Assembly: GCA_947623825.1 (NCBI GenBank)
Contig: CANQHQ010000003.1
Span: 4,220 to 68,219, forward strand
Source of the DNA: an uncultured Bacilli bacterium
GTDB taxonomy: Bacteria; Bacillota_I; Bacilli_A; RF39; UBA660
Direction: 5' to 3'
Length of the DNA stretch: 64,000 bases
Shown here: in pieces, positions 1,403 to 54,957 of the stretch
Layout of the letters: every line of letters starts with the position of its first letter
Position numbering within the stretch: the first letter of the stretch is position 1
The notes under the pieces: model-generated
Databases searched by the model: none
The model's input: the letters and a program-made list of their open reading frames with translations, nothing else
Told to the model about the DNA's origin: nothing
Position numbers and translations under genes: made by a program

Positions 1403-2611
1403 TCACTCGCTCTTTTTATGTTTTTTTAATTCTTGGTTCACTAGTTTTTTATAAGCCTCTACTCCTGGCTGATTAAAAGGATTCACATCTAGTAAATATC
1501 CACCAATTGCCGCAGCCATTTCTTCAAAGTAAATCCATTTTCCTATTTCCATAGGAGAAAGTTCCGAAAGCGTAAAGAGGATACTTGGCGTATTTCCACT
1601 TTCATGGGCTTCCATTACTTTTTCCAAAACCAAATGATTTAATTCATTCATCGAAAGGTCATAATTTTCTAGCGTCAGATCTTCGGTTTCTTCTATCTTC
1701 CATACGGTTTCAAAAACATTTTTCGTGCCCTCTTGAAGATATTGTCCAATCGAATGAAGATTAGTTGTATTTTCATTTACGATGGGAAGAATTCCCTTTC
1801 CTTCTTTCCCTTGTGTTTCCGCGAACAATTGTTGTGCCCAAGCCGCAAAAGAAGATAATTTTTCTTCATAAATCGTATTGGCTTCTATCGTATAACCATC
1901 TTCTTCCAAATGTTTTCTTACTAGTGCGTATTGGGCGGCCTCGTCGAAACAGTTACGATTGAAGTTAGCACCCGTTAAAAGAGAAAGAAAATCGATTCCT
2001 GCCACAGCGATTGGAAATAACCCTACTGGAGATAATACGGAATACCTTCCTCCAATTTGTCTTGGGACAGTCAATGTCTCCAAATGATTTTCGGTCGCAA
2101 ATTTTCTTAGTTTTCCTTCTTCTTTATCGGTAGTTACAATGATTCTTTTCTCATAATCAGAAAAATGTTCTTTCATATACTTGTAAATTTTTTCAAAGGC
2201 AATCGATGGTTCTAGAGTTCCTCCCGATTTGGAGATGACATTGACATAGACACTTTTTCCTTCGAGATACATTAAAAGTTCTTTCAAGTAACTCGAAGAT
2301 AAGTGGTTCCCAGCGAAAAGAATTTCTGGCTTGTTCTTTTGAAAATAAGGTTGAAGTGCTTCGATTACAGCCCTACTACCTAAATAAGATCCTCCGATAC
2401 CAATGACAACGAAAACATCGGCTTGATTTCGAATCTCGCTCGCAAGAAGGGAGATCTTTTTCTTCTCCTCTTCCTCGATACAAGTTTCTACATCTAGCCA
2501 GTCTAACATCTCTTGCTTTTGGTTCATCTTCTCTTTGATTTCTTCTAATTTTTTTCTTTCTTCTTCCGAACATGTATTCCATTTTTTTGCATGTGTGAAA
2601 TCTATTTTCAT
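1403..2611 (-). CDS. pgi: Glucose-6-phosphate isomerase (Gram-positive type)
   Basis: 402 aa. Contains the GIGGSYLG and GGRYSVLSPVGL motifs typical of PGI. The start overlaps the stop of the upstream giant gene (coupled). Confidence 0.9.
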   Translation of the reverse strand: MKIDFTHAKKWNTCSEEERKKLEEIKEKMNQKQEMLDWLDVETCIEEEEKKKISLLASEIRNQADVFVVIGIGGSYLGSRAVIEALQPYFQKNKPEILFAGNHLSSSYLKELLMYLEGKSVYVNVISKSGGTLEPSIAFEKIYKYMKEHFSDYEKRIIVTTDKEEGKLRKFATENHLETLTVPRQIGGRYSVLSPVGLFPIAVAGIDFLSLLTGANFNRNCFDEAAQYALVRKHLEEDGYTIEANTIYEEKLSSFAAWAQQLFAETQGKEGKGILPIVNENTTNLHSIGQYLQEGTKNVFETVWKIEETEDLTLENYDLSMNELNHLVLEKVMEAHESGNTPSILFTLSELSPMEIGKWIYFEEMAAAIGGYLLDVNPFNQPGVEAYKKLVNQELKKHKKSE

Positions 2612-5600
2612 TCTTCTTTCACCTCGATTTGAACTTCGTGTACCTTCTTATCATTTACTAATCGAATTTCTTTTGCTTCTACTCCATCGATTAGAATTCG
2701 TTTTTCCTTTTTCTTTTGTACTTGGATATGGTATTCTGTTTCCTCATAGTGATAAGTTAATTCTATGGTACTCCATTCTTTTCCCATTTGTGGATGAATT
2801 TCTAGTTTGTCTTTTCGTTTCTGGAAACCTAGTAGATTTTCTAATCCAATTCGATAAAACCATCCACTCGATCCTGTATACCAAGTCCATCCTCCTCGTC
2901 CACGATGATTTGGATTCGAATAGATATCCGCCGCAATGACATATGGTTCGGTCCTATACGTCTTTGTATCTTTTTCTGTTTTGGTACGGTGAATTGGGTT
3001 TACCATCTGGAAGATTTTTAAGGCTTCCTCTTCTCTCTTTAATTTTAAGAGCGATAAGATATACCAAGAAACGGCATGAGTATATTGTCCTCCATTTTCT
3101 CTTACCCCTATCGGATAATCCATAATATAACCCGCATAATTTCTACTGTTTTTAAAGGCTGGAGTTAACAATTTTACAATTTTGATATTTTTATCGACCA
3201 ATTGGTCTTCGACACAACGAAGAACACTTTCGATTCTTTCTTTTGGAATCACTTCTGATAAGATAGAAAAACTTTGCGATATTAAATCGATTTTACATTC
3301 TTCGCTTTCTTTGCTTCCTACTTTGGTTCCATCATCGAAGAAAGCACGTAAATAATATTCTCCATCCCATGCCTGTTCATTGATATTTTTCTTTAATTCT
3401 TCCCGCGCCTTTTCATATTTTTCGGTAGAAAGGTTCTTATCGTATTTTTTGGTTAACTGAATGAACTTCTCTAAGACGTCGTAGAAGAAGAAGGCAAGCC
3501 AAACACTTTCTCCTTTTCCTTGGATTCCGATTTGGTTCATTCCATCGTTCCAATCTCCTCCACCCATATGAGGAAGTCCGTGTTCTCCTAAATCATTCAA
3601 TGTCCGTTCGATAGCGAGACGGCAGTGTTCATACAAGGAAGCGGTTTCTTCACTCAAAGTAAAGTCTTCTCCTCGTTCTTCCTCAAAATCTTGAAGAAGA
3701 CTTCCTTGGGCAAAAGGAATTTGTTCTTTCAAAATAGAAGTATCTTCGGTGACTTCGATATAATCATTCGTTGCGTAGACAAGCCATAAATAGTCATCTT
3801 TGAAGCGACTTCGCAATCCAAAATTCTTTGGTTCTAACCACCAGTGAAGTACGTCTCCTTCCTGGAATTGATGACTGGCATTTTTCAAAATTTGTTTTCT
3901 AGCCAATGCCGGATAGATACTACGAAGATTCATCGTATCTTGTAATTGGTCTCGATATCCAAAAGCCCCACTTACTTGATAGAATCCAGCCCGAGCGAGA
4001 ATTCGTCCGACAATCGTTTGATATAAGTACCAACCATTCATCATGTAATCGAAACTTGGGTCATTGGTTTTTACTTGTACTGTTTCGAGTGTTTTCTTCC
4101 AGAAGGCTTTGACTTTCGATAATTCTTTTTCATACTCTTTCGTGGAAGCGTACTTTTCTTTGATTTCTTTAATTTCTTCTAGATTTCCGCCCACTCCCAG
4201 GATAAATCCGATCTTCTTCTTTTCTTTTCCTTTGAGTTCGATAAAAGTTTGAACAGATTTCACAAGAATTTTATCACCGTTCATTTCGTTAATCGGTTCC
4301 GTCGAAGTTACAAAGATAAGGTTCTCTCGATATTCTTTACTATAAACGTTTCGAAGGGTCATCCAGTTTTCTTCTGGATAGGTTTCCGTTAGTAAGTATC
4401 GACTGGTTTTCTCTTCTAGATTTCCTAAAACAGGATTCAACCAATAAGCAACGTCATATTGTTTGGTTTCTTCTGTTAAATTTTCTATCTCGAAAAGATA
4501 AAATTTTACTTTTTCTTCGGTCGCTACAAATTCCGTCAAAGTCTCTTTCAACTCTTTGGTTTGACTTTCAAAAATGGTATATCCGAATCCATGTCTTGCG
4601 ATACTTGGGTAAAAACTTTCTTGATTGATGCGAATTCCTTCCGACTGATCGAAGGAAACGATATCATTCGTCCAAGAAGTAAGCTTGAATTCTTGACTGT
4701 TATAGGCATAGGTAAAGCCACTCGCATTATTACTTACCAACGTACCAAATTGGGCATTCGCAAGGATATTGAACCATGGAGTTGGCGTATCTGGTGTCGT
4801 GATGACATATTCTTTTCCTTCGTTCGCAAAACCACCAAAGCCATTGGCAAAGGCAAGATTTTTTTCTGGTGGAGCGGGAAGATTCTTTTGTTTTTGAATC
4901 GGTTGATACGTACTCGCACTGTTTTGGGCTTGTAGTGCTTCAATATAAGAATGCATCGAATCATGTTCCCTACTATCCAAACGAAGACGAGCGACCACAT
5001 TAAATAACAATTGTTCTTCCTTGGTCATATCATCAGAATGAATATAGAAAATCTTTCCAGGACGATTGCCAAAAGAATTCGTCTTATAGATTTGATAAAT
5101 CGTAAAATCAATTTCTTCTTTGATTCGTTTTTCGTACTGCTTCTTTTCATCGTTGATGATAATGACATCAACAAAAATTCCCTTCGTTTTAAAATATTCG
5201 TAGGCCTTCAATAGTTGTTTTGCCAAACTGATGGCACTCAGATCATGGATTGTTAAAGTAATCATCGGTCGATCACCAGAGACTCCAAACTTCCAGAGAG
5301 AATCTTGCGCTAGAACATTTCTCTTCAAGAGTTCTTTTCTTTCTTCATTGATGTTCATTTTACTTGTCTGATACAAATAATTTAACATGATATTGTAAAG
5401 TCTCATATCTCGACCTGTAATGTTTAGTTTTTTACAGTTCGAAAGATTCGTGATGGTGGCAAGTTCAAATTCTTCTTCGATTGAAGATTCATTCTCATAG
5501 AATTTCGCAATATCAATGACTTGATTTCGACTCGTTCCAAAGCAGTTCAAAATATAAATTTCTCTGGATTCTTCTGGGGCAAGAGAAATGGTGTTTCTCA

Positions 5601-8600
5601 TACTCATGACAGGATCAATTGGGGTCGCTGCTTCATTGGAAAGTTTTCCTTCAAGGGCAATTGGATTCGTCGCCGTACGATTTCTTCCGATAAATTGAAC
5701 TCGTTGCGTCTCGTATTCGTAATCTTTTTCTGTATCTGGAATATAAAGGCGATGAAGCAAATAATAACGATCGGGACGATTTCGTAAAGTTCGTTTCATA
5801 ATTAAAGCATTGACATTCGTATCGTATTCACTCTCTAAGAAAAGATTATTGAACGTTCGATGCGTTACATCGTTAATATTCTCCGTAATGGTTGGTTCTA
5901 GATACGTGGTAAGTTCTAGTGTTTTCTTTGTCTTGGCATTGTTTTTGATGGTTACTTTTCGAATTTCGGCATTATACATCGTACTGACAATGATTTCCGT
6001 CGTCGTCGCAACCTCGTTTTCAACCAAAACATATTTCAAACGATCGGAAGCAAAAACTACTTCATATTTTTCTGGTTTCCGGTTGATTGGGGCATAAGTA
6101 TTACTCCAAATTTTGCCATTTTCGGTATCTTTGAGGTAAAGAAAGGTTCCATAATCTTGTTCCGTTACCTTGCGATACCGATTTAATTGAATTTCTTTAT
6201 AACGACTGAATCCATTTCCTCTATCGTTCATCAATACTGTATACTTCGAATTTGAAATCGCACTCACTTCTGGTAAATCGGAAGGACAAGTAAAGTAACG
6301 CATATCATTTTCAATGACTTCTTTTTCATAGTTAAATCGTTTGTACTTCGCAATCTTCCAATCGATGACAGGATTTAATTGAATCTTTTCTTTTGTCAAA
6401 ATCTCAAAAGCCCGATTATTGGTATCTTCCATAAAATAGTCTTGGATGATTCCATTCTTTAGATAATTGGTAAGCGAAGAAAGAATCATTCCCTGATGAT
6501 GAGAGAAGAACGCCCGAACTGGTTTTTTGGTCTTTGTATCATACGATTCATAGAATCCGTAAGGGGTTTCTAATCCCAATTTTCTTAGTTTATGAATGTT
6601 TTTATACACTTCTTTTGGTTTTTCGATCGTCACAAGAATCGAACTATAAGGAGAAATAACAAGATGCGTATCGTTTACTTCTTGTAATTTTAGATAAGGG
6701 ACAGAGAACGTTTTATATTTATAATTGACTCCATTATCTAATTCGTCATAGGCACATTCACTAATTCCCCATGGTAAATGACGATTTCTTTCCTGCATAT
6801 AAGCTCTTTGACAGAAATAAGCAAAATCGTAACTTTCATCTAAGAGAGTGTTTGGATAACTCTTCATAAAGATGAGAGGCATGTAGTATTCAAAAAGAGA
6901 CCCAGCCCAAGAAGCAACTCCTTTATGATGTCGAAATTTCGTTAGTGTTTTATCGAGGCAAAACCAATGTTTACTTGGTACATCTCCTTTCGCTATCGCT
7001 ACATAACTGAGTAGACGACTTTCACTAGCGAAGCGGTTGTATTTATAAACGGAACATTCATTTTCAAAATCGTTGTATCCCACACTGAAGACTTCTTCTT
7101 TCGTATATAATTTTGAAAAATCTGTTTGTTGAATCAAAAGACGACAACGATTCGCTAATCTTTCTTCCCCTATTTTTTTGAGAAATTCTTTGGTTACGAT
7201 GAGACAAGCAACAAAATTTCCACTATCTACCGAAGAGACAAAGTGTGGGAATAATACTTTCAATGTTTCTGTTTGATACCAGTTATATAAATGTCCATTC
7301 CATTTGTCTAGTTTCTCTATCGTTTCTAGAATTTTTTCCATATAGAAAGTGGCTTCATTCTTTTTGATGAAACCAAGTTCATAGGCAGAAACAACCGCAA
7401 GGAAAGAAAATCCGATATCGGTAGGAGAAGTTTTATTATCCCGTGCATAAGCGCGATTTTCTTGATAGTTATCAGGAATTAAGTAATGGTATTCTTCCGT
7501 TAAATTTTCTTCAAAGAACTTCCATGTCTTATGGGCGATAGCTTCTATATCTTTTGTTTCTTCTTTCGAAAGTTCCTGTGTCCGATTTCTTCTTGTTTCC
7601 TTACTGATGTAATACGTGATATAAGGCGCAAGAGAGAACGTTAAACTGATACACAAAGCAGAAATAAAGTTAGAATTTTGTCCAAATAGATAAGTGAAGA
7701 GAAGAAGGATAAAAATGATAAAGTAATTGGCTTTGAAGTTTTCAATATAATTCGTTAACGTATTTTTTATAGTCTTCTCTGCTTCTTCCGCGGTTAGCCA
7801 ACTGAGCAAATGTTTTTTACTGATGATCATCCGATATAAAGAGCGAAAAATCGCATCTAAATAAAGCGCGGCTTTATAAGGAAGGGTCGTAAAAGAAATA
7901 ATGGTTCTTAAAATGACCGCTTCTCCACTTTTAATGATATTCGTATATGGTTTTACTTTTACTTTTCTTGTGAATTGATGACTCAACTTTTCTGTTATAT
8001 AGAAAATGAGTGGCATCGCGATAACGAATAATACATAGATACTCCATCCCGTTAAATAACTGTGCGAACTGAAGTAAGCAAATAATAAGATAACAAGTAA
8101 GAAAAACTCGATGAGGCAACGTCGTAAGTTATCAAAAATTTTCCATCTTTCTAAAAGCGTCAACGGATTTTTATACTTTTTCCCTTGTTCATCTTTTACG
8201 TATGGGAAGAGCCATGGTAAGACCTGTGTATCGCCACGCATCCAACGATGATGCCTTGTCATATCCGTCAAATATTGACTACAAAAATCATCGAATAATT
8301 CAATATTGGAAGTGTATCCACTATGAAGATAGTTGCTTTCTACCAAATCGTGGGAAAGAATGAGTCCTGTTGGGAAACGATGGTCAATGACTTCGTCGTA
8401 CACTTTTAAGTGATAAATTCCTTTTCCCATAAAGCTTCCTTCGTGGAACACATCTTGATAGAAATTCGAAATTAACGTGTTGTATACGTCAAATCCACCG
8501 AGTCCAGCGAAGAGTTCTGCATAAAGAGAACGATTGGATGATTCGACATCGACACTTAGTTTCGGTTGCAAAATTCCATATCCTTGTACTACTTTATTTC

Positions 8601-10299
8601 TTTCTTTATTCAACACGGGTTGATTGAGAGGATGCGCCATTGTTCCAACTAAATCCGCTACACTACCAACGACAAGTTTGGTATCGGCATCTAGTGTAAT
8701 CACATATTTTATCTTTTCTTTTAAACTGTGTAACGTCTCTACTTTAAAAAATTTTTGTACTTCTTCTTTCGGCATTTTATTTAAGAGAAGCCGGTTAAAA
8801 TGAATCAAAGCTCCTCTTTTTCTTTCCCAACCGAGATAAGAATCTTCTGTCTCGTGATATACGCGATTTCGGTAAAGGAAAAAGAAACGTTCTTCTTGAT
8901 ATTTTTCGTTTAATTCTTTGCATTTTTGGATTCCATAAGCGGCTACTTCTTCATCGTGAGGAACCGCTTCTTGCTTTTGTTCACTACAATCTCCTAATAA
9001 AGCAAAATAGAGATGGTCCATCCGGTTTGCAAGAAATCCTGATTCTAAATTCGAGAACATAGCATCGATTTTTTTCTTATCCTTCAAAATGGTTGGAATC
9101 ACTACCATCGTTGCTTCACTTTCGCGAATTCCTTTTGAAAAATCTAATTTAGGAAGGGCTTTCGGTTTTAACTCTGTCGTTAAAATTCGATTCAAAATGG
9201 TAATGACAATTTCACTCGAAGGAATCCATAAAATGAGAAATCCAAGAAGTTTCTGTTCGGTCAGATAAGGGGCAAGTCCATAACTGATGGCACTCGTAAA
9301 CAAGAGAATAATGGTAAAATACAAGAATTCTCTTCTTTTTCGATTGGGCTCTTTTAAAAGATAGAAACCAATATGCTTCTTTTCTCTAGTACTTTGCGCA
9401 ATCAATCTTCGGACATAAATTAATTCACTCACCTTTTGTTTTTTGGCAAGTTTTACAATTCTTTCCCGATACATATTTTTAGAATCGGCATCCATCATTC
9501 GATAGGTACGATCACTATTCAATTCTTCTTCGGTTTCACTAATTTCTTCATAAATCGATTCGAGTTTGAGATGCTCATTCATCTTTAAAATGAGGAATAA
9601 ATTACTGATGACTAAATTCTTTTTGATTCTGTCTTCATAGACTTCATTTAATACCCTTTTTAGATTGGTATTATTTCTTTCTAAGTTTTCGTTTAATTCG
9701 TAAAATACTTGACTAGCCCCGCGATTTAAACGGTAAAGATTTTCATTTAGATATTCGATATAGATAGGATAATTGATGATATCTTCCTTAATTGTGATAT
9801 ATTTATGGATATCATCTTCCGGATGTTTCAAAAGTTTTTTTCCAAGAAAGACAATATCACTTTCTGCCCTTTTTCTTTCTAACATGGCACTTTTTTCAGC
9901 TACACATAATTCTTTTACTTTGTGAATAATTACCATAGATAGAATTGGACGAATTCGTTGAAGTCCTTGATAGGTAAAACTGATTTTATTATTCTTTTGA
10001 TAATATTTCAAATGACGAAACATACTTCTTTTCGTCATTTTATAATTGTTATTTTCCAAATAGTTCGTTAAAACATTCCAAAGTAGTTCACTCGTTTCTT
10101 TGGTATTACGAATCAACTTTTCATCGGCATAGATTTCTTCAATCATATTTTGATGCTCTAATAAGGTGGCATAGTTATCCAAAATCCACTCATTTAAGGC
10201 CCCGATGGGTTGATGGTTTTTTGTCTTCTTTACCAAAAAATTATAATATTTGGAAATGATTCTTAAATCCTTTTTAAACTCTCTATATCTTTTATACAT
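2608..10299 (-). CDS. Cyclic beta-1,2-glucan synthase-like giant protein (Cgs/NdvB/ChvB architecture). It has a membrane-embedded GT84 glycosyltransferase domain and a C-terminal GH94 glycoside phosphorylase-like domain.
   Basis: The N-terminal half has multiple transmembrane segments and a GT84 block: ITLDADTKLVVGSVADLVGTMAHPLNQPV ... GYGILQP ... LSHDL ... HHRWMRGDTQVLPW. These match the Cgs motifs TLDADT, MAHPLN, GYGILQP and HRWxRGDWQ. The C-terminal half carries GH94 signatures: GYRDQLQD, HWW, GGDWNDGMN, ENGGQYTHAVSW and GRGGWTWYTGSSGW. The ORF-track start (10332) is a TTG. The ATG at 10299 (MYKRYREFKK) has a GGGTGA Shine-Dalgarno 6 nt upstream and is preferred; it gives 2563 aa. Confidence 0.8.
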   Translation of the reverse strand: MYKRYREFKKDLRIISKYYNFLVKKTKNHQPIGALNEWILDNYATLLEHQNMIEEIYADEKLIRNTKETSELLWNVLTNYLENNNYKMTKRSMFRHLKYYQKNNKISFTYQGLQRIRPILSMVIIHKVKELCVAEKSAMLERKRAESDIVFLGKKLLKHPEDDIHKYITIKEDIINYPIYIEYLNENLYRLNRGASQVFYELNENLERNNTNLKRVLNEVYEDRIKKNLVISNLFLILKMNEHLKLESIYEEISETEEELNSDRTYRMMDADSKNMYRERIVKLAKKQKVSELIYVRRLIAQSTREKKHIGFYLLKEPNRKRREFLYFTIILLFTSAISYGLAPYLTEQKLLGFLILWIPSSEIVITILNRILTTELKPKALPKLDFSKGIRESEATMVVIPTILKDKKKIDAMFSNLESGFLANRMDHLYFALLGDCSEQKQEAVPHDEEVAAYGIQKCKELNEKYQEERFFFLYRNRVYHETEDSYLGWERKRGALIHFNRLLLNKMPKEEVQKFFKVETLHSLKEKIKYVITLDADTKLVVGSVADLVGTMAHPLNQPVLNKERNKVVQGYGILQPKLSVDVESSNRSLYAELFAGLGGFDVYNTLISNFYQDVFHEGSFMGKGIYHLKVYDEVIDHRFPTGLILSHDLVESNYLHSGYTSNIELFDDFCSQYLTDMTRHHRWMRGDTQVLPWLFPYVKDEQGKKYKNPLTLLERWKIFDNLRRCLIEFFLLVILLFAYFSSHSYLTGWSIYVLFVIAMPLIFYITEKLSHQFTRKVKVKPYTNIIKSGEAVILRTIISFTTLPYKAALYLDAIFRSLYRMIISKKHLLSWLTAEEAEKTIKNTLTNYIENFKANYFIIFILLLFTYLFGQNSNFISALCISLTFSLAPYITYYISKETRRNRTQELSKEETKDIEAIAHKTWKFFEENLTEEYHYLIPDNYQENRAYARDNKTSPTDIGFSFLAVVSAYELGFIKKNEATFYMEKILETIEKLDKWNGHLYNWYQTETLKVLFPHFVSSVDSGNFVACLIVTKEFLKKIGEERLANRCRLLIQQTDFSKLYTKEEVFSVGYNDFENECSVYKYNRFASESRLLSYVAIAKGDVPSKHWFCLDKTLTKFRHHKGVASWAGSLFEYYMPLIFMKSYPNTLLDESYDFAYFCQRAYMQERNRHLPWGISECAYDELDNGVNYKYKTFSVPYLKLQEVNDTHLVISPYSSILVTIEKPKEVYKNIHKLRKLGLETPYGFYESYDTKTKKPVRAFFSHHQGMILSSLTNYLKNGIIQDYFMEDTNNRAFEILTKEKIQLNPVIDWKIAKYKRFNYEKEVIENDMRYFTCPSDLPEVSAISNSKYTVLMNDRGNGFSRYKEIQLNRYRKVTEQDYGTFLYLKDTENGKIWSNTYAPINRKPEKYEVVFASDRLKYVLVENEVATTTEIIVSTMYNAEIRKVTIKNNAKTKKTLELTTYLEPTITENINDVTHRTFNNLFLESEYDTNVNALIMKRTLRNRPDRYYLLHRLYIPDTEKDYEYETQRVQFIGRNRTATNPIALEGKLSNEAATPIDPVMSMRNTISLAPEESREIYILNCFGTSRNQVIDIAKFYENESSIEEEFELATITNLSNCKKLNITGRDMRLYNIMLNYLYQTSKMNINEERKELLKRNVLAQDSLWKFGVSGDRPMITLTIHDLSAISLAKQLLKAYEYFKTKGIFVDVIIINDEKKQYEKRIKEEIDFTIYQIYKTNSFGNRPGKIFYIHSDDMTKEEQLLFNVVARLRLDSREHDSMHSYIEALQAQNSASTYQPIQKQKNLPAPPEKNLAFANGFGGFANEGKEYVITTPDTPTPWFNILANAQFGTLVSNNASGFTYAYNSQEFKLTSWTNDIVSFDQSEGIRINQESFYPSIARHGFGYTIFESQTKELKETLTEFVATEEKVKFYLFEIENLTEETKQYDVAYWLNPVLGNLEEKTSRYLLTETYPEENWMTLRNVYSKEYRENLIFVTSTEPINEMNGDKILVKSVQTFIELKGKEKKKIGFILGVGGNLEEIKEIKEKYASTKEYEKELSKVKAFWKKTLETVQVKTNDPSFDYMMNGWYLYQTIVGRILARAGFYQVSGAFGYRDQLQDTMNLRSIYPALARKQILKNASHQFQEGDVLHWWLEPKNFGLRSRFKDDYLWLVYATNDYIEVTEDTSILKEQIPFAQGSLLQDFEEERGEDFTLSEETASLYEHCRLAIERTLNDLGEHGLPHMGGGDWNDGMNQIGIQGKGESVWLAFFFYDVLEKFIQLTKKYDKNLSTEKYEKAREELKKNINEQAWDGEYYLRAFFDDGTKVGSKESEECKIDLISQSFSILSEVIPKERIESVLRCVEDQLVDKNIKIVKLLTPAFKNSRNYAGYIMDYPIGVRENGGQYTHAVSWYILSLLKLKREEEALKIFQMVNPIHRTKTEKDTKTYRTEPYVIAADIYSNPNHRGRGGWTWYTGSSGWFYRIGLENLLGFQKRKDKLEIHPQMGKEWSTIELTYHYEETEYHIQVQKKKEKRILIDGVEAKEIRLVNDKKVHEVQIEVKEE

Positions 10300-10398
10300 C
10301 GATATCACCCTACTCCTACTATAGTATATCAAAAATTCCCCTCATTCGGAAGTCAAAGTAGGAAAAAAATAAAAGGAAGGGGAAGTTTTTTCCCTTTC

Positions 10399-14886: not shown

Positions 14887-17800
14887 TTATTCATCATAAT
14901 TAGGAATGATGGTTGCTTTGAACCCATAATAGTCGCTACCACTACTATCTGTATGAAACAAGATTTTAAGATAATTTCCAGGGATAAGAATCGTTTCTGT
15001 TGTCTTGGTACTTCCTCCATACTTTCCATACTGTTTCTCATTAGAATCATATAGATAAATATAATCCCAACTTGGGCCTTCTGTTTGATACTCCAATATA
15101 ACTGTTAAAGAAGTCGCATTGTCAAAAGTATGTTCATATTCTTCGTTCAGATCACTATCATATGGATTATGTTTAGACTCCATGATAGTTCCCTCAACCA
15201 CTGTTACATTCGTAATGATGACATCTTCATTCGGCATAACAAAGGTATTTCCTTTCATTTTCGTTCCATTCATGTCAAACGAAGTAACTACACAATTATC
15301 TTGAGTTGATGTTAATGTAATTTTGGTAGTTATAATTCCACCAGATGGAGTCGCAATAATATCTTCTCTATCTTGAATCGTTACCGAATGTTCCACACAC
15401 GGACCGCTTGCTTTTACTACATTCGATTTTTCAGATCGGGTTGCAATCATTTGATCTACTAACGCTTCCGATTCAGTTGTATAATTGACTGTGATTTGAG
15501 CATTATTTTGGGTAGCAGCGCTAGAAAACATATAATCATAACTAGTCACCGAATTATTTAAAATACTGATTGTTGTGGTTAAAGTACTACAACCAGAAAA
15601 CATGGAACTCATATCCGTTACTTTACTTGTGTCCCAACCACTTATATCTAAACTGGTTAAGGATTTACATCCATAAAACATACGACTCATATTGGTTACT
15701 TGTTCGACGTTCCATCCACTTAGATTACCCACATTAGTTAAAGCGTGACAGTTAAAAAACATCTCATTCATATCCGTTACTTTACTTGTGTCCCAACCGT
15801 TTAAATTCCCAATACTGGTTAAGGAATAACAATTAGAAAATATGTAATGCATGTCGGTTACTTGACTCGTGTTCCAGCTGCTTAAATCTAAACTGATTAA
15901 GCGTTGGCACCAGTAAAACATGTAATGCATATCCGTTACTTTACTGGTATCCCAACCACTTATATCTCCGACACTAGTTAAGTCATAACACCCCTCAAAC
16001 ATGTTGCACATATTCGTTACCTGACCGGTGTTCCATTTACCTAAGTTTAAACTAGTTAAACTTAAACAATTATGAAACATCTGACTCATATTAGTTACTT
16101 GACTTGTGTCCCAGTCACTTATATCTCCCATATTGATTAAATCTTGACAACTAGAAAACATACTCCTCATACTAGTTACTTGATTTGTGTGCCAGTTACT
16201 CAAATCCTCTAAACTAGTTAACCGAATACAATCTTTAAACATATAACTCATATCAGTTACATGACTCGTGTCCCAGTTTTTTAAACCTTCTAAACTAGTT
16301 AATTGACTACAACCATTAAACATACTAGCCATATCGGTTACTTGACTTGTGTCCCAGCCACTTAAATCTAAACTGGTTAAAGCTTTACAACCAGAAAATA
16401 CCTGACTCATATTGGTTACTCGACCCGTGCTCCAGCCACTTAAATCTAAACTGGTTAAAACTTTACAATTATCAAACATCCCACTCATATTGGTTACTTG
16501 ACTCGTGTCCCAGTCACTTAAGCCCTCTAAACTGGTTAAGACGTAACAATTATAAAACACCATACTCATATTGCCTACATGACCTGTGTCCCAGCCACTT
16601 AAATCTAAACTGATTAGGGAAGTGCAATAGTAAAACATCTGCCTCATACTAGTTATCAGGCTTATGTCCCAGCCACTTAAATCTAAACTGATTAGGGAAC
16701 TACAATAGTAAAACATCTGCATCATATTCTTTAGTTGACTAGTATTCCAATCACTTAAACCCTCCAAACTAGTTAAGGTGCTACAATTATAAAACATACA
16801 ATCCATATTGGCTACTTGACTGGTGTCCCAGCCATTTAAATCTAAAGTGGTTAAGGAATAACAATTATAAAACATCTCATACATATTGGTTACTTTTCTT
16901 GTATCCCAGCTACTTAAATCCAAACCTGTTAAAGCTCTACAACGAGAAAACATTTCACTCATATCGGATACTTGGCTCGTATCTAATAATTCTAAATCTT
17001 CTATCGCCTTTAATTTTGAAAAGGAAGAAAAATAATCGCCACCAAATAAGTAAGAACTATCTGAATTCGCAATGACTCTCCCTTCCAAGCCTTGAATATA
17101 GGCAGTATAAGTCGAAGAATCATCAGAATTCGGTACCAATAATCCTCGTACGGATCCATCTTTAGCTTCTGAAATATCCCATGTAAGTTCATCAGTAGCA
17201 CCTTCTTTTAATGTCTGTTCCCCTTCAATTACTATCTTTGTAATAGATTCTTTATATTGCCATAGTTCTCCATTATAACTACTAGAATCTATTTCTTGAA
17301 GAACTGGATCTTTTTGGACGTAAACCTCTCCTTCCACCGACTTCGATAATCCCATTCTTCCCCATTCTGCTCGTAATGTTACATCCTTCTCAGGCATTGT
17401 AAAGTAGTCATCATTCAGTTTCTTCACTCCTCCTGTAACAATCTTCCATCCTTTGAATTGATATCCTTGGCAGGTAGGGGTCTCACTACTTTTCTCTACC
17501 GTTTCAAAGACTCGGTAACTAGATTTCTCCGGTACCCCACTCACACTACATCCACTTGGGGCATTTCCATCATAAGTAACATTATAATGACTTGCTAAAA
17601 TAGGAGTTTCTTTGGTCGTAACATCTTCTCTATCTTCTTCTATTTGAGAAACCACTTCACTACTCTTGTTAGTCAGGTAAAGTCCTCCTTCTTCAAGATA
17701 TGCTTCCTTTAAATCAATATCAATTGTTAAGGTAGCACTTCTTCCTGCACCTAACCCACTTAAATCCCATGTGACTTTTGATACTCCATTATCATCTTCT

Positions 17801-18714
17801 AATTTTACTTTTCCAATAGAAGACTGAATATTCGAAACATTCTTTAAATCAAAATATTCATTATTAATCCAATCCGTTAATATAAAGTTCTCATAAGGAG
17901 TTGGCACAACCGAAGCATCAAACAAAATATTATTCAACGTAGTCATATCAGCGATGAACTGACTATCACTAATTTCTTTGATGGGATCTAGAATTTCTTC
18001 TCCCATTTCATACTGAACTCCATGAATGTTTAACCATGGATATTCACTCTTTAAATATTTGTATTCTCCTATTTGATTCGGAATATCTTCATTCGGGTAT
18101 CCATCCGTTAAAAATAAAACAACGCATTCTGTATCTTTCTCCTTGGAATAGTTTTTCAAAATCTCATCCACATGGACAAGTGGTTGATAATAATTCGTAC
18201 TACCTTGATCAGAAAGAGAAGAAATTTTCTCTGTTAAACTACTCTTATCATTAGTAAAACCAGATACCAATTCTGACCCTGTATCAAATGTAATCAATGC
18301 TGCTTGATTGTTAGGATTAGATAATAATGTATTCAATAAACTGATGGAATCTTCTTTGACTCGGTCTAATTTTTCTCCTGCCATAGAACCTGAAATATCA
18401 AGGACTAAAATGACATCCGTATTTGGATTTCCCGTCCTTAAAACTGTATCTACTTGGAAAGTAATTCTCGCTTTTCCCAATCCAATCCATTCGGCACTCT
18501 TCTCTATCTTCCAACTCCCTGAATTCTTCTTTTCATAACTTAACGTTTTTGAAAAAAAAGAAATCTTGGGAACTGGTTCATTTAAGGCATATGAGTTCAT
18601 CAAAAGCCCTATTCCAATCATAAAAAAGCCTAGTAGTCCAAGAGATACAAACTTTAAATTCTTATGAATCTTTAAAAACAACCAGTTCATAAATTTTCCT
18701 CCATCAAAAAACAA
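14887..18714 (-). CDS. Large surface protein. N-terminal signal/anchor, von Willebrand factor A domain, Listeria-Bacteroides repeat, about 19 tandem DUF285-type repeats, and a C-terminal beta-rich domain.
   Basis: 1275 aa. Begins with the hydrophobic MNWLFLKIHKNLKFVSLGLLGFFMIGIGLL. The VWA MIDAS motif is DVILVLDISGSMAG. YNVTYDGNAPSG...GYQFKGWK...TLRAEWG is a Listeria-Bacteroides repeat (PF09479). A long array of 25-aa units follows, of the form LSxWDTSxVTxMxxMFxxCxxLTSLD, which matches DUF285 (PF03382). A GGAGG Shine-Dalgarno sits 8 nt upstream. Confidence 0.8.
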   Translation of the reverse strand: MFFDGGKFMNWLFLKIHKNLKFVSLGLLGFFMIGIGLLMNSYALNEPVPKISFFSKTLSYEKKNSGSWKIEKSAEWIGLGKARITFQVDTVLRTGNPNTDVILVLDISGSMAGEKLDRVKEDSISLLNTLLSNPNNQAALITFDTGSELVSGFTNDKSSLTEKISSLSDQGSTNYYQPLVHVDEILKNYSKEKDTECVVLFLTDGYPNEDIPNQIGEYKYLKSEYPWLNIHGVQYEMGEEILDPIKEISDSQFIADMTTLNNILFDASVVPTPYENFILTDWINNEYFDLKNVSNIQSSIGKVKLEDDNGVSKVTWDLSGLGAGRSATLTIDIDLKEAYLEEGGLYLTNKSSEVVSQIEEDREDVTTKETPILASHYNVTYDGNAPSGCSVSGVPEKSSYRVFETVEKSSETPTCQGYQFKGWKIVTGGVKKLNDDYFTMPEKDVTLRAEWGRMGLSKSVEGEVYVQKDPVLQEIDSSSYNGELWQYKESITKIVIEGEQTLKEGATDELTWDISEAKDGSVRGLLVPNSDDSSTYTAYIQGLEGRVIANSDSSYLFGGDYFSSFSKLKAIEDLELLDTSQVSDMSEMFSRCRALTGLDLSSWDTRKVTNMYEMFYNCYSLTTLDLNGWDTSQVANMDCMFYNCSTLTSLEGLSDWNTSQLKNMMQMFYYCSSLISLDLSGWDISLITSMRQMFYYCTSLISLDLSGWDTGHVGNMSMVFYNCYVLTSLEGLSDWDTSQVTNMSGMFDNCKVLTSLDLSGWSTGRVTNMSQVFSGCKALTSLDLSGWDTSQVTDMASMFNGCSQLTSLEGLKNWDTSHVTDMSYMFKDCIRLTSLEDLSNWHTNQVTSMRSMFSSCQDLINMGDISDWDTSQVTNMSQMFHNCLSLTSLNLGKWNTGQVTNMCNMFEGCYDLTSVGDISGWDTSKVTDMHYMFYWCQRLISLDLSSWNTSQVTDMHYIFSNCYSLTSIGNLNGWDTSKVTDMNEMFFNCHALTNVGNLSGWNVEQVTNMSRMFYGCKSLTSLDISGWDTSKVTDMSSMFSGCSTLTTTISILNNSVTSYDYMFSSAATQNNAQITVNYTTESEALVDQMIATRSEKSNVVKASGPCVEHSVTIQDREDIIATPSGGIITTKITLTSTQDNCVVTSFDMNGTKMKGNTFVMPNEDVIITNVTVVEGTIMESKHNPYDSDLNEEYEHTFDNATSLTVILEYQTEGPSWDYIYLYDSNEKQYGKYGGSTKTTETILIPGNYLKILFHTDSSGSDYYGFKATIIPNYDE
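15540..16990. repeat. Intragenic tandem repeat array with a period of about 75 bp, about 19 copies, encoding the DUF285 units
   Basis: A 75-nt periodicity is visible in the DNA. The recurring core is gttacttgactcgtgtcccagccacttaaatctaaactggttaa, with copy-to-copy divergence. Confidence 0.7.
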
Positions 18715-50832: not shown

Positions 50833-51210
50833 TTACATTTTTTGTGTAGAAGTCAAGGGGATTTCTGGATCTTCATACAAATGGTGAGAGGAAACGGTTC
50901 CACTTTCAATTCTTTGAATGAGTTGAAGGTTCCAACCGTGAATGGTTTCAAGGAGTGTTCTTTCTTGTGGATAGTTCTTTGCGATGGTCATTTCTACTCC
51001 TCGAAGAATTTCATTGGTATCCAATAACAGTTCTTTATTGGTGATGATTTCCCTAATAAAATCGATTGTTTCTTCGTCTTGGTAGAATTTATCCAACGTT
51101 TCTCGTTCCTCTGAATCCAGAATTTCTCGCTCTTCTCCTCCTTGCCTTAAGGCGGTTTCTAAATCTCTTTTGATTACAAGTACGCGCAAATCATGATTGG
51201 TTGTAGCCAT
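50833..51210 (-). CDS. Hypothetical acidic cytoplasmic protein. Possibly an accessory or immunity component of the adjacent peptide locus.
   Basis: 125 aa, predicted helical, with no transmembrane segment. It has its own promoter, TTGACT, 17 nt, then TATAAT. The -35 is embedded in a 25-bp direct repeat. Shine-Dalgarno GGAAGGTGGAAGG. Confidence 0.5.
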   Translation of the reverse strand: MATTNHDLRVLVIKRDLETALRQGGEEREILDSEERETLDKFYQDEETIDFIREIITNKELLLDTNEILRGVEMTIAKNYPQERTLLETIHGWNLQLIQRIESGTVSSHHLYEDPEIPLTSTQKM

Positions 51211-51305: not shown

Positions 51306-51485
51306 TACAACAAAAAAGAAACCGAAGTTTCTTTTAGGAAATCCATTGGGCTAAGTTGCGACAAAAAATACCGACCCCTCTTCCCAATTGGAATAAGAAA
51401 AGGAACAAATACGTTCCAAGGTAACATCCAAACGTTCCTTCTATTATCAAGAGTAGTCCTTTTCTTATTGTTTCTTTTTTTGTTT

Positions 51486-51650
51486 TTATAGTGGGCATAG
51501 TTGATCACTTGCCACTCTACGTATCGCAGAACCGAAGTTTCGTCCGAGTGAACTGATGGTTTTTAGAATGGTTGAAACGGCATTGATTAATGTTCCTGAA
51601 ATCGTTCCTCCCGTGATTTCCATCAATTCTTGATTTTCTAGTTTTTTCAT
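51486..51650 (-). CDS. Double-glycine-leader peptide B (54-aa precursor, 39-aa cationic amphipathic mature peptide). Bacteriocin-like. Not in the ORF track.
   Basis: Hand translation: MKKLENQELMEITGG|TISGTLINAVSTILKTISSLGRNFGSAIRRVASDQLCPL. Perfect Shine-Dalgarno TAGGAGGGTAGA then ATG. The leader fits ELxxIxGG. A terminator hairpin (GGAAC gtattt GTTCC then TTTTCTT) lies about 70 nt downstream. Confidence 0.7.
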   Translation of the reverse strand: MKKLENQELMEITGGTISGTLINAVSTILKTISSLGRNFGSAIRRVASDQLCPL

Positions 51651-51659
51651 TCTACCCTC

Positions 51660-51803
51660 CTATTCCTGACAACCTAGAGGACGTGCAATCCCATCAAAGA
51701 CGCCGACAAGAAAGGCCCCTAAGGCAATGAGTCCAGCAATTCCTAAGGCACTAAGTCCTCCTCCTTCGACCTGTTTTAATTCTTGTTCTTCCATTTTTTT
51801 CAT
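51660..51803 (-). CDS. Double-glycine-leader peptide A (47-aa precursor, 32-aa hydrophobic mature peptide). Bacteriocin-like. Not in the ORF track.
   Basis: Hand translation: MKKMEEQELKQVEGG|GLSALGIAGLIALGAFLVGVFDGIARPLGCQE. Its ATG overlaps the TGA of the upstream gene (ATGA coupling). It contains GxxxG and AxxxA motifs, as in class IIb two-peptide bacteriocins. Confidence 0.7.
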   Translation of the reverse strand: MKKMEEQELKQVEGGGLSALGIAGLIALGAFLVGVFDGIARPLGCQE

Positions 51804-52219
51804 TGAATCTTCTCCTCCCAAATTGTTTTTATTTTTTGAAATATTGTATCTTTCGAAATCATAAACTTTCCAGATAAAATAGGAAAAGGAATTTCTTCTT
51901 CTAATTGAAAAGTCACCAAATAAAACAATTGATTCTCTGCTGCCATCGGTACTTCTTCTACTTTGGAAATGTGATAGGAAAATTCTTGTTCCCCTTGGCG
52001 AAATATCGTTCCCCTACTAATTTTGGTTAAGGTAAGAGAAGAAAGATAAGTCTCGTATTCGGTTCCTTGTTTTTGAATCAATTTTCCAGGATAACTATCT
52101 TCCATTTTTAGGTTCAAAACACCTAGAAAGAAAAGAAGACTGCATCCTAGAAGAACGATATACCTTCTAGATGAAAAAGTCGGTTCTAGATTGTCGTCAT
52201 ACTCCCATCGTCTCTTCAA
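51800..52219 (-). CDS. Small membrane-anchored protein co-operonic with the C39 ABC transporter (accessory or immunity candidate)
   Basis: 139 aa. A single N-terminal transmembrane segment (YIVLLGCSLLFFLGVLNL) and a soluble domain of about 100 aa. It overlaps the ABC transporter gene by 23 nt and peptide A by ATGA. Confidence 0.5.
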   Translation of the reverse strand: MKRRWEYDDNLEPTFSSRRYIVLLGCSLLFFLGVLNLKMEDSYPGKLIQKQGTEYETYLSSLTLTKISRGTIFRQGEQEFSYHISKVEEVPMAAENQLFYLVTFQLEEEIPFPILSGKFMISKDTIFQKIKTIWEEKIQ

Positions 52220-54284
52220 AAATCATCCCTTCCTTTACTTTCATTTTTCTTGTAAATAGATCTTGGTTGCTTTCGCGGTGAGAAATGACAATAAATGTCT
52301 TATCCGGAAACATCGTAAATATGTTTTCTAAAATCAATCGTTCCTTGTAGACATCTAATTCACTAAAACTCTCATCAAAGATGTAAATCGACGCTTGTTT
52401 CCATAAGGCTCTCGCAATTAAAATACGATCTCGTTCTCCTCCACTTAAATTTTGACCATTTTCTTCTAGTGGAAATTGATACCCTTCTTTTTTCGTCGTA
52501 ACGATCTCATCTACATAACACAGTTTTCCTAGATCGAGTGCCCGTTCCATATTTTCTTCTCCCCATGTCATATTTTCCATGACACTGTCACTGAAGAGAT
52601 AACTGTTTTGTGCTAGATAAAGGATGTTTTGACGAATAAAAGTTAAGGGATACTCTTTTTGATTTTTTCCATTCCATCGCACTTGTCCTTCCTCTGGTTC
52701 TAGAATTCTCGCTAGAATACGAGAAAGGGTACTCTTTCCTCCTCCACTCTTCCCAGTTAATAAAATTCGATCATGCTTGTAAATGGTAAGAGAAAGATTT
52801 TTTAGAACTGGGGTTTTGCCATCATAACTATAACTAACATTTTCTAAGGCGAGTGTTTGTAAAGGAGAAAATTGTTTCTTTTTATATGGAAGAAATTTTT
52901 CTTTCGGTAGTTGTAATACTTCTCTAATATTTTCCCATATCTGTTGGGCTTCTTCTTTTTCTAGTAATAAAGAAAAGAATGGTTGGACTAGTTGAAGAAT
53001 GTAGCCCGCAATGGCGTGAATAAATAAAATATTTCCTAGAGGAATTTCTTGATTCACTACCTCATAGATTCCACGAACCAATAGAAGAAATAATCCGATA
53101 TCATGTACCGCCTTTTCCCAAAGAATTTGAAAATTCCAATTTCGTAAGAGATGACTCTCTAACGTTTGATATTCCTTCTCTTCTCTTTCGAATTGTCTTT
53201 GAAACTTTCTTTGTACTTGGAAGGCTTGAATGGTTTCTATCCCTAAAAAGCTTTCCGTCAATAAAGAATTTACTTTCTCCTGTTGCCTTTTTCCTTTGGC
53301 TAAAATCGACTGAAAAGAACGTTTCCCTAACCAATGCATTCCTCCTTCTAGACAAAAGATACCAAATAGAAAGAAAACAATCTTTATCTCTTGACTACCT
53401 AAAAAGAGAAGTAGAAAACAAACGATTGGCAAATGAATCAAAAATAAAAGAAGACTCTTCGAGAATAAGTTCGCTATTTTTTCGACTTCTAACATTTTGG
53501 TTAGAAGTTCTCCTGGTTTATGATTTCGATAATATAAATAAGGAAGTGATGTTAGATGCGTAAAGACCAAACGGTTCAATTCTCTATTCAAAGATTGATC
53601 TAAGTGTGTCGTTAAATGAAATTGAAATCCGGATAAGAAATATTTCCATACGTACGTAAACAGGAAGACTCCTAGAAAAAGGAACAAATTGGTTTTCGAG
53701 GAAATTTCTATGACATATTCTAATAAACATTTCCATGAAAAAGAAAGGATTAATTCCAAAAGGACTAAGACGATGGAAATACCAAGTAGAAAAAGCCATT
53801 CTTTCTTATGTTTGGTCAAAAAAGAAAGTAACATATCGTAAAAAAGGGGTTCTTCTTTGTTTTTCTCTAATTTCTTTTTTGGCACCAAAAGAAGGAAAAC
53901 TTGACTACTGATTTTTTCAAATTCTTCTCTCGTTATCTGCATGAGGGAACTAGAAGGATCCGCAATTAAGAGTCGTTTTTCATTCATTTTATAGATGACG
54001 ACGTAATGGTGATACTTTTCTTCTACTACTACATGCGCAATACAAGGAAGATCTTCCTCTTTCAATTCTTCTAGTGGACCTTTTACTCCATAGGCCGAAA
54101 ACTGTAATTTTTTCGCTGTTTGGATTAAGTCGTAGGCACTGGTTCCTTGGTCGGTTGTATGTGTCATATGACGCAAAGTTTCTTTCGAAATATTTCCCCG
54201 ATAATAGCGAAGAATCATCAGTAAACAACAGACACCACAATCTTTGCTGGACTCTTGTTTCACGAATGGTAATCGCACAAACAT
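52197..54284 (-). CDS. Bacteriocin-type ABC transporter with an N-terminal C39 peptidase domain (ComA/LagD/SunT family)
   Basis: The C39 catalytic region is QESSKDCGVCCLLMILRYYRG ... HYVVIY. A 6-transmembrane domain follows. Walker A LLTGKSGGGKSTL, signature LSGGERDRILIARAL, Walker B IYIFDE. The start is GTG/ATG at 54287/54284. Confidence 0.85.
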   Translation of the reverse strand: MFVRLPFVKQESSKDCGVCCLLMILRYYRGNISKETLRHMTHTTDQGTSAYDLIQTAKKLQFSAYGVKGPLEELKEEDLPCIAHVVVEEKYHHYVVIYKMNEKRLLIADPSSSLMQITREEFEKISSQVFLLLVPKKKLEKNKEEPLFYDMLLSFLTKHKKEWLFLLGISIVLVLLELILSFSWKCLLEYVIEISSKTNLFLFLGVFLFTYVWKYFLSGFQFHLTTHLDQSLNRELNRLVFTHLTSLPYLYYRNHKPGELLTKMLEVEKIANLFSKSLLLFLIHLPIVCFLLLFLGSQEIKIVFFLFGIFCLEGGMHWLGKRSFQSILAKGKRQQEKVNSLLTESFLGIETIQAFQVQRKFQRQFEREEKEYQTLESHLLRNWNFQILWEKAVHDIGLFLLLVRGIYEVVNQEIPLGNILFIHAIAGYILQLVQPFFSLLLEKEEAQQIWENIREVLQLPKEKFLPYKKKQFSPLQTLALENVSYSYDGKTPVLKNLSLTIYKHDRILLTGKSGGGKSTLSRILARILEPEEGQVRWNGKNQKEYPLTFIRQNILYLAQNSYLFSDSVMENMTWGEENMERALDLGKLCYVDEIVTTKKEGYQFPLEENGQNLSGGERDRILIARALWKQASIYIFDESFSELDVYKERLILENIFTMFPDKTFIVISHRESNQDLFTRKMKVKEGMIFEETMGV

Positions 54285-54344
54285 CACTTCCTACTTACAT
54301 TATTTACAAAAGTCCCCATTGAGGTAAAAAAAAGAAGATTTTTT

Positions 54345-54665
54345 TTAATCTTCTTTTCCTAAACTTTGAAGTTGTTTTTCTAAACATTGAATTTTTTCAT
54401 CAATTTTTTGTTGGTCTTCCTCTTCTAAAGAGTACCATCCAAGACGAAAGGATACATCATAACATTCTCTCGCAGCATCTTTGGTATCTTCTAATAAAGT
54501 AAAAATATCTTCATATAAGTAAGAGTTACTAGCTTCGTCTAAGGCAATCGCATAATTATTGGACATGTTCTTTTCGAGGGAGAGAATGACTCCTAACCTG
54601 TCTTTGTCATTCATTTCCATTCCTTCAGGAACTTCTGTTTTCGGATTCTCAATCTTCTTGTTCAT
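54345..54665 (-). CDS. Spore coat protein F-like (Coat_F domain) protein
   Basis: 106 aa. NDKDRLGVILSLEKNMSNNYAIALDEASNSYLYEDIF ... GWY matches the CotF-family pattern. A terminator hairpin (AAGAAGATT ... ATCTTCTT then T8) lies downstream. Confidence 0.55.
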   Translation of the reverse strand: MNKKIENPKTEVPEGMEMNDKDRLGVILSLEKNMSNNYAIALDEASNSYLYEDIFTLLEDTKDAARECYDVSFRLGWYSLEEEDQQKIDEKIQCLEKQLQSLGKED

Positions 54666-54957
54666 CTTCGTCCTCGTCCTCCTCTTCTTCTTCGTCTTCT
54701 TCTATTTCTTCTTCGTCATCTTCGTCTATTTCTTCTTCCTCATCGGATTCTTCGTCTTCTTTGTTTAAAATCGCAAGAATCCATTCCATATGTTGGTAAT
54801 GCATTTCTTTTAAAGTTTCCATTACTTCTTTCACTTCTTCATTTTGTACTTCTTTTTCGAAATGATGAATTTCTTTCCATGCTTCAAAATTCCAATGAAA
54901 CATGTCTTCTAAATAAAGTAAATCTTTGGTTGTAATGATTTTAGGTACTGTTTCCAT
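54649..54957 (-). CDS. Hypothetical protein with a poly-acidic (E/D) C-terminal tail, paired with the CotF-like gene
   Basis: 102 aa. The last 40 aa are almost entirely E/D, encoded by a GAA/GAG/GAT-rich stretch at 54660..54760. It overlaps the CotF-like gene by 17 nt. Confidence 0.45.
   Translation of the reverse strand: METVPKIITTKDLLYLEDMFHWNFEAWKEIHHFEKEVQNEEVKEVMETLKEMHYQHMEWILAILNKEDEESDEEEEIDEDDEEEIEEDEEEEEDEDEDEQED

Follow-up and report, generated by a model that had tools for sequence, protein, structure and literature searches.

In a 64-kb stretch of the genome of an uncultured Bacilli bacterium (the window: 64,000 nucleotides, positions 4,220 to 68,219 of contig CANQHQ010000003.1 in assembly GCA_947623825.1), we found an unannotated five-gene operon that lies entirely on the minus strand. 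It encodes an ATP-binding cassette (ABC) exporter with an N-terminal C39 peptidase domain, a 139-aa membrane protein, two small precursors with double-glycine (GG) leaders (peptide 1 and peptide 2), and a third small open reading frame (ORF). We propose that the operon makes a class IIb-type two-peptide unit that is exported and acts on membranes; judging from the sequences, we lean towards this reading with modest confidence. Two parts of the proposal are stronger. It is close to certain, from homology, that the exporter cleaves and exports both peptides, and it is well supported that peptide 1 and peptide 2 would act together, as they are strictly co-inherited and have matched invariant features.

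Both of the small peptide ORFs are real genes. Each begins with a 15-aa leader that ends in GG and has hydrophobic residues at positions -4, -7, -12, and -15, which are the leader positions that exporters of this kind read (PMC7018657). The peptide 1 precursor scores 16.0 bits against TIGR01847 (cutoff 15.7) and the peptide 2 precursor is just below the cutoff, at 13.2 bits. When we scanned all six frames of the window for the leader pattern, we found no credible peptide beyond these two. The pair recurs in about 30 related loci, which is far above chance. We also compared the genes to those of a syntenic contig from a related organism (L002; synonymous divergence dS about 0.8-1.9). The ratio of nonsynonymous to synonymous change (dN/dS) was 0.17 for peptide 1, 0.044 for peptide 2, 0.09 for the exporter, 0.23 for the 139-aa gene, and 0.40 for the third ORF, so all five genes are under purifying selection. 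The original prediction of two tandem GG-leader peptide genes at an unannotated locus is thus borne out.

The original prediction also recognized the C39 peptidase domain of the exporter, and the family models agree: the protein matches Peptidase_C39 (E = 1.7e-38), ABC_membrane (7e-23), and ABC_tran (3e-26) from Pfam, all above the curated cutoffs. It has the C39 peptidase, the six-helix membrane domain, and the ATPase domain of a PCAT/AMS exporter. Its closest solved relative is PCAT1 (4ry2), which it matches over its full length (E = 1e-88), and its Gln, Cys (in DCG), His (in HHYVVIY), and Asp (in ADP) align with the peptidase site of PCAT1. Its score against TIGR01193 from NCBIfam is 337 bits, which is below the cutoff of 524, so it is a divergent member of its kind. 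A scan of reference genomes with the exporter sequence returned only an unrelated ABC fragment. The aligned upstream regions of the relatives indicate that the true start of the exporter is probably the GTG at 54278 (MRLPFVKQ...), which is eight bases past the AGGAAG.

The two mature peptides are unlike in character. Mature peptide 1 (32 aa) amounts to a single membrane-spanning helix, with a grand average of hydropathy (GRAVY) of 1.30 and a net charge of -1. The hydrophobic helix was correctly predicted, but its richness in GxxxG and AxxxA motifs was overstated: there is one strict GxxxG (GVFDG) and there are two AxxxA, along with the motif RPxxC. Mature peptide 2 (39 aa) is, as predicted, cationic (net charge +3) and amphipathic. 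Its hydrophobic moment over 18 residues is 0.78, and none of 2,000 shuffled sequences reached this value. It also has a GxxxG motif (GRNFG) that the original prediction overlooked, and its Cys is three residues from the end.

These motifs are kept in the relatives, whose mature peptides are 31-41 aa long. All 24 of the peptide 1 sequences that we collected before the last two loci (L039 and L040) fit the pattern G..[DE]G...P..C, that is, a GxxxG followed by Arg-Pro or Asn-Pro and then a Cys that is one or two residues before the end. In peptide 2, G[RKQ]xxG and a Cys that is zero to three residues from the end are present in all 26 sequences. The peptide 1 pattern also holds for L039 and L040, and their peptide 2 sequences keep both the GxxxG and the near-terminal Cys; L040 has His after the first Gly of this motif, and L039 has two Cys, of which the nearest is two residues from the end. 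None of our search patterns included the GxxxG or the Cys. The single Cys near each C terminus, which had been pointed out for the window's peptides, is therefore matched by an invariant near-terminal Cys across the relatives.

We found the roughly 30 related metagenomic loci by three independent routes: homology to the 139-aa protein, a short peptide 2 motif, and homology to the exporter. Scanning metagenomes with the peptide 2 motif gave 21 further, more divergent loci. Two relatives of the exporter (36% and 31% identity), which we picked only because their contigs are long, have the same cassette just upstream of rpsU. Wherever a match to the 139-aa protein could be placed, the order was exporter, small membrane protein, peptide 1, peptide 2, and at all loci where we could read both peptide positions, the two occur together and in this order. 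In most of the related loci, the cassette is directly upstream of rpsU. On the contigs that are long enough to include the flanks, the arrangement is mraZ-rsmH-ftsL-pbp2B ... CoatF / cassette / rpsU-yqeY-yqfC-yqfD-ybeY-dgkA-cdd-era-recO. One of the exporter's relatives is labelled "MAG ... [Bacilli bacterium]". The genes for YlbD_coat, SpoIIIAH, and GerM are among the neighbors of the distant loci, so the carriers are spore-formers. The cassette is chromosomal and vertically inherited throughout a lineage of uncultured spore-forming Bacilli. Searching a plasmid collection with both peptides gave no match.

Class IIb bacteriocins are defined by two adjacent peptide genes in one operon, double-glycine leaders of 15-30 residues, a dedicated exporter, GxxxG motifs, and an immunity gene (PMC2850506). 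In the sequence, we see adjacent genes, GG leaders on both precursors, a dedicated C39 exporter, and a GxxxG in each peptide, as in the loci for lactococcin G, plantaricin EF/JK, and enterocin 1071 (PMC2850506). The amphipathic cationic partner is another likeness to these loci. As for the immunity gene, a conserved 54-aa membrane ORF (the third ORF) lies directly downstream, where the immunity gene usually is, although it matches no known immunity family and is absent from one subclade (L031-L037). Unlike the class IIb loci, the locus encodes mature peptides with no sequence similarity to any known member and with one invariant Cys near each C terminus; its downstream ORF is related to peptide 2; its exporter gene comes first; it has a 139-aa protein instead of an LcnD-type accessory protein of roughly 450 aa; and it is inherited across the lineage as part of the core genome, with cargo that is more conserved than the exporter.

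The third ORF bears on the original statement that no immunity gene is obvious. This ORF, which overlaps the stop codon of peptide 2, was overlooked, and it is a candidate. In the window and in 16 related loci, an ORF of 46-63 aa starts either inside the end of peptide 2 or shortly past it; in the gene calls shown for the related contigs, only the one in L039 was called. These proteins have a basic N terminus, one membrane helix, and a C-terminal segment that resembles peptide 2 (LGRxxGxxxR). In the alignment, which includes 15 of the 17 loci, 13 have the motif G...G[ST]..R, which is present in 0.1% of shuffled sequences. We used hhalign to compare profiles built from the 15 third ORFs and from 21 mature peptide 2 sequences, and these aligned across 27 columns (Prob 88%, E = 2.8e-6). 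This alignment spans the GxxxG, the Arg, and the terminal Cys, or the C-terminal two-thirds of mature peptide 2, and smaller profiles aligned in the same register (E = 0.011). The flank at the N-terminal side of the helix has a net charge of +4, which suggests that the N terminus is inside the cell. By the positive-inside rule, this suggests that the peptide 2-like segment would face outwards, on the side of the membrane to which the peptides are exported. In our reading, the third ORF has no leader, is anchored in the membrane, and is related to the C-terminal part of peptide 2. Our hypothesis is that it most likely serves as an immunity protein, or as a control or partner protein, by occupying the surface of peptide 1 that pairs with peptide 2.

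Peptide 2 ends in ...KC in the subclade that lacks the third ORF (L031-L037). In one of these loci (L035), peptide 2 is followed by an unrelated ORF of at least 81 aa (6284-6529, cut by the contig end) that is predicted to span the membrane several times; this could be an alternative immunity gene. In L038 (121-468), an unrelated stretch joins the N-terminal part of peptide 2, in frame, to the third ORF (115 aa in all). This contig has 1x coverage, and the arrangement could be genuine (a fusion or a deletion) or could come from an error in the assembly.

The 139-aa protein had been described as a single-transmembrane protein that takes the place of an HlyD/LcnD-type accessory. It has no match in Pfam, in NCBIfam, or among the sequences in the PDB (including a profile search of the PDB), and it lacks what marks accessory proteins of the LcnD/ComB/HlyD type: a match to the HlyD family, a lipoyl domain with a coiled-coil hairpin, and a length near 450 aa. 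However, its modeled structure has some likeness to these proteins. An AlphaFold2 model from ten family members (pLDDT, the predicted local distance difference test, of 78) has a membrane helix at residues 17-35, a beta domain at 38-125, and a final helix at 126-138; we set aside an earlier model from two sequences (pLDDT 56) as too poor. The beta domain is modeled as one beta-barrel outside the membrane, like the barrel domain of membrane-fusion adaptors (BesA, MacA, MexA, EmrA, Spr0693), although there is no match to these at the sequence level and the lipoyl and alpha-hairpin domains are missing. Unrelated small barrels (HerA and F1 N-terminal domains, flavin-reductase split barrels, Gar1, and RimM) are equally good structural matches.

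Relatives of the 139-aa protein are few. HMMER against 1.84 billion representative proteins gave 11 matches, of which ten are real (counting one identical fragment) and the eleventh is apparently spurious. The real matches are 129-138 aa long, except for two truncated copies (91 and 101 aa). A word-indexed homology search gave just two matches. More distant loci have proteins of 135-152 aa in the same position, and four of these (147-152 aa) align weakly but colinearly with the 139-aa family (hhalign E = 1e-4, Prob 56%). With one exception, the gene overlaps the 3' end of the exporter gene in the loci that we checked, which suggests that its translation is coupled to that of the exporter. It is absent from L018, L026, L028, and L031-L037, so export in general does not require the protein, in line with the statement that Gram-positive exporters of this kind work alone or with one accessory protein (PMC7018657). 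Because of the tight translational coupling, and because the gene is absent from lineages that keep the third ORF, we think that a role as an exporter partner is more likely than a role in immunity.

We can sketch how such a system might work. The C39 domain would recognize the GG leaders of both precursors, cut after the Gly-Gly, and the exporter would pump the mature peptides out, as expected from its strong homology. Once outside the cell, peptide 1 and peptide 2 may pair helix-to-helix via their invariant GxxxG motifs, which would place both C-terminal Cys on the same side, where they could form a disulfide, and the pair would act on the membrane or on a membrane protein. The third ORF might protect the producer, or might be a partner of the peptides, by taking up the surface on peptide 1 where pairing occurs. 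Given its resemblance to adaptor folds, the 139-aa protein might be a translationally coupled but non-essential partner of the exporter, with its barrel on the outer face.

The bacteriocin reading fits because of the architecture of the locus and the peptide 2-like third ORF, but several observations weigh against it. In the window, mature peptide 1 carries a slight negative charge (-1) and is not cationic. Neither mature peptide matches a known bacteriocin family. Against TIGR03949, the lactobin A/cerein 7B family of class IIb (cutoff 21.5), the full peptide 1 precursor reaches 25.6 bits, but the mature part alone matches no family and neither of two full-length precursors from relatives matches TIGR03949. 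We therefore did not assign peptide 1 to this family, as the match depends on the leader. Nor did either peptide reach Bacteriocin_IIc (PF10439), the family that the original prediction singled out for checking: peptide 1 scored 20.6 bits, under the gathering threshold of 27.1, and peptide 2 did not match. Peptide 2 belongs to no known family, and a word-indexed homology search with it found only itself. We also searched the full text of a literature collection for six motifs from both peptides and found nothing relevant.

The site of the cassette and its conservation are also unlike a typical weapon. The cassette is at a fixed core-genome site beside rpsU, and the GC content of the locus (0.34-0.36) equals that of its surroundings. 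We compared proteins from the window to those of three relatives whose exporters are 45-49% identical to the window's (L012, L016, and L006) and to those of the closer L002. Mature peptide 2 is 67-74% identical in the three relatives (92% in L002) and mature peptide 1 is 60-73% identical (66% in L002). The corresponding values are 28-36% (59% in L002) for the 139-aa protein, 67-71% (79% in L002) for YqeY, and 77-79% for Era in L012 and L016 (84% in L002, where the exporter is 74% identical). Given these identities, the cargo is about as conserved as housekeeping proteins are, and in the three relatives it is more conserved than its own exporter (60-74% versus 45-49%). Bacteriocins under arms-race diversification usually show the opposite, with cargo that is less conserved than the exporter. 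Also, L031-L037 lack both the third ORF and the 139-aa gene, so a pair that is toxic to its producer would have no adjacent immunity gene there. A vertically inherited cassette whose cargo is more conserved than its exporter weakens the idea of a simple weapon. The architecture of the original class IIb prediction stands, but the cassette, inherited at a fixed core-genome position, is not a sporadic bacteriocin island.

The fixed core site, the conservation of the cargo, and the subclade with no adjacent immunity candidate leave real room for a role that is not antagonistic. The exported pair might have a conserved function outside of warfare, possibly as a disulfide-linked heterodimer whose target is the producer's own envelope or sibling cells. 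This could be lysis tied to sporulation, cannibalism, or a signal in development, with the bacteriocin-like architecture being ancestral hardware that was reused. In favor of this, the cassette is inherited vertically upstream of rpsU-yqeY-yqfC-yqfD even where the exporter is down to 31% identity, and there are sporulation genes near the cassette in every carrier lineage that we examined (CoatF, YqfC/YqfD, YlbD_coat, SpoIIIAH, or GerM). But closeness to sporulation genes may arise by chance in spore-formers, some chromosomal bacteriocins are conserved as well, and we could not assign a receptor, a regulator, or a sporulation-type promoter. The peptide 2-like third ORF is also easier to explain as self-protection against a toxic pair. 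Overall, we consider a conserved role of this kind to be unlikely but worth taking seriously. The two peptides could instead be independent one-peptide (class IId-like) bacteriocins that merely use the same exporter. Many loci with such exporters do encode several unrelated GG peptides (PMC7018657), and these two peptides differ greatly in character, but their strict co-inheritance in the same order, each with one GxxxG and a near-terminal Cys, makes this quite improbable.

Another explanation for the GG leaders is that the peptides are quorum-sensing pheromones of the ComC or BlpC type. The leader regions have weak, sub-threshold matches to the models for ComC (E = 0.07) and the EntF induction factor (E = 0.018), but the matches are confined to the leader, and the mature peptides are 31-41 aa long with one of them resembling a membrane helix. 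The original prediction stated that clear homology to pheromones with a cognate histidine kinase nearby would count against a bacteriocin. Among the scanned ORFs of the 64-kb window we found neither a histidine kinase nor a response regulator, and there is none in the annotated flanks of a dozen related loci. Pheromones also usually diversify into pherotypes, in contrast to the high conservation that we see, so we view this as very improbable.

In Streptococcus pneumoniae, CibAB is a chromosomal, species-conserved two-peptide bacteriocin with double-glycine leaders that acts against siblings, and CibC, a hydrophobic immunity protein of roughly 65 aa, is encoded just downstream. The cassette resembles this system in being a two-peptide GG system with a small downstream membrane gene, although the third ORF is just a candidate for immunity. 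Unlike the cassette, which has its own exporter, CibABC is in the competence regulon and is exported by ComAB, which is encoded elsewhere. The cargo of PCAT1 from Clostridium thermocellum is CtA, a polypeptide that we take to be about 90 aa. PCAT1, the closest solved relative of the exporter, shares its peptidase catalytic residues, but its cargo is a single, larger polypeptide, and neither a two-peptide cargo nor a small membrane partner has been described for it (4ry2; PMC8794836, PMC6959990). The rtg locus of S. pneumoniae is also similar: it has an exporter (RtgA), an accessory protein (RtgB), and then GG peptides in one operon, and the leader positions are the same (-15, -12, -7, and -4; PMC7018657). 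Having the exporter first is not, then, as unusual as was originally suggested. However, rtg is highly variable, is often disrupted among strains, and has adjacent Rgg/SHP regulators (PMC7018657), and RtgB is a full-length ComB/BlpB-like protein, whereas here we find a single-domain 139-aa protein, a conserved cassette, and no adjacent regulator.

The features of the locus and its surroundings are listed in the table. The peptide genes had been placed directly downstream of the exporter, but the 139-aa gene lies in between. The gene junctions had been described as ATGA overlaps. This is correct for the junction of the 139-aa gene and peptide 1, which is the only one of its kind in the cassette; the exporter and 139-aa genes overlap by 23 nt, with a TTG start. 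The peptide 1 and peptide 2 genes are 9 nt apart, and the predicted GGAGGG Shine-Dalgarno sequence does precede peptide 2. The ATG of the third ORF is 13 nt inside the end of the peptide 2 gene. The hairpin directly 3' of the third ORF, which has an equivalent in the same place in L002, is the end of the operon. At the other end, the promoter-like TTTACC-18-AATAAT is part of a box, TTTTGTAAATAAT, which hardly varies across the near clade. This box and the Shine-Dalgarno sequence are kept across seven aligned upstream regions from the near clade, just past the terminator of the CoatF gene. We considered whether the box is a sporulation or sigma-H type promoter, but by eye, across the loci, the spacings do not fit. 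A search of the locus with Rfam gave no meaningful match.

Table. The exporter-peptide cassette and other features of the window (positions are within the 64-kb window)
Feature	Position	Strand	Description
Promoter-like region	54299-54328	-	TTTACC-18-AATAAT, 5' of exporter gene (consensus scan)
Exporter Shine-Dalgarno	54287-54292	-	AGGAAG
Exporter ORF	52197-54287	-	696 aa
139-aa ORF	51800-52219	-	TTG start; single-pass membrane protein
Peptide 1 precursor	51660-51803	-	47 aa; MKKMEEQELKQVEGG+GLSALG...GCQE
Peptide 2 precursor	51486-51650	-	54 aa; MKKLENQELMEITGG+TISGTL...LCPL
Third small ORF	51334-51498	-	54 aa; predicted membrane protein
Intrinsic-terminator-like hairpin	51308-51335	-	9-bp stem, UUCG loop, U-rich tail (fold)
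Promoter of 125-aa gene	51263-51235		TTGACT-17-TATAAT; strong, near-consensus, sigma-70-type
125-aa gene	50833-51210	-	Next gene after cassette, unrelated to it; no family match
Overlapping small gene pair	54345-54957	-	Upstream of cassette, own terminator; 102-aa protein with long acidic tail, and 106-aa CoatF-domain protein (E = 4e-11)
Very large ORF	2608-10332	-	2574 aa
Very large ORF	14887-18714	-	1275 aa

In most of the relatives, peptide 1 as called begins at an ATG further upstream, with MEGG... (for example, at about 8357-8554 in L016 and at 6396-6557 in L006). The GGAGG of this start is also a Shine-Dalgarno sequence and is inside the conserved WKEE end of the accessory gene. In L011 (about 3527-3700), there is no suitably placed ATG, GTG, or TTG for peptide 1 (...KGGDIIKSL...), which suggests that some lineages may use ATT or ATA as its start codon.

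Upstream of the exporter, loci from the subclade that lacks the accessory gene and the third ORF (L031, L033, L034, and L037; also L036) share a different box, AAAGGAAAT, which is about 40-60 nt before the exporter start. It is about 25 nt upstream of an AATAAT-like element that is just ahead of the Shine-Dalgarno sequence, and this spacing does not fit the sigma-H and sporulation sigma consensus sequences that we tried. As for the neighboring genes, the 102-aa/CoatF pair is kept upstream of the exporter throughout the near clade. The 125-aa gene between the cassette and rpsU is kept in several near-clade loci (L002, L011, and L016), is replaced by a 185-aa gene in L012, and is absent from L006 and L009. 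Among the more distant loci, the cassette adjoins spoIIIAH-like and gerM (Germane) genes in L032 (1800-3547) and L040 (1866-3304), and it is near a YlbD_coat gene in L025.

The cassette represents a new family of double-glycine peptide pairs in uncultured Bacilli that is not described in the literature that we searched. If the bond between the two Cys forms, then it would be the first unmodified two-peptide bacteriocin with an inter-peptide disulfide. The kinship of the third ORF to peptide 2 suggests a simple form of immunity, in which a membrane-anchored decoy sits on the partner's pairing surface. The 139-aa protein would be the smallest adaptor-like partner for this type of exporter, and could give a handle on what accessory proteins do in bacteria with a single membrane. 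The housekeeping-like inheritance and the conserved cargo also raise the question of whether some "bacteriocin" systems have conserved physiological roles. More speculatively, the product may be a disulfide-linked, GxxxG-paired heterodimer that serves the whole lineage in its physiology (in sporulation-linked lysis of siblings or mother cells, or at the envelope) and not in warfare between species, with the third ORF as a membrane-anchored mimic of peptide 2 that controls or neutralizes the pair on the producer. We think that this combination is rather unlikely, but if it is true, bacteriocin machinery would be serving a housekeeping function here, and immunity by paralogy would be seen for the first time.

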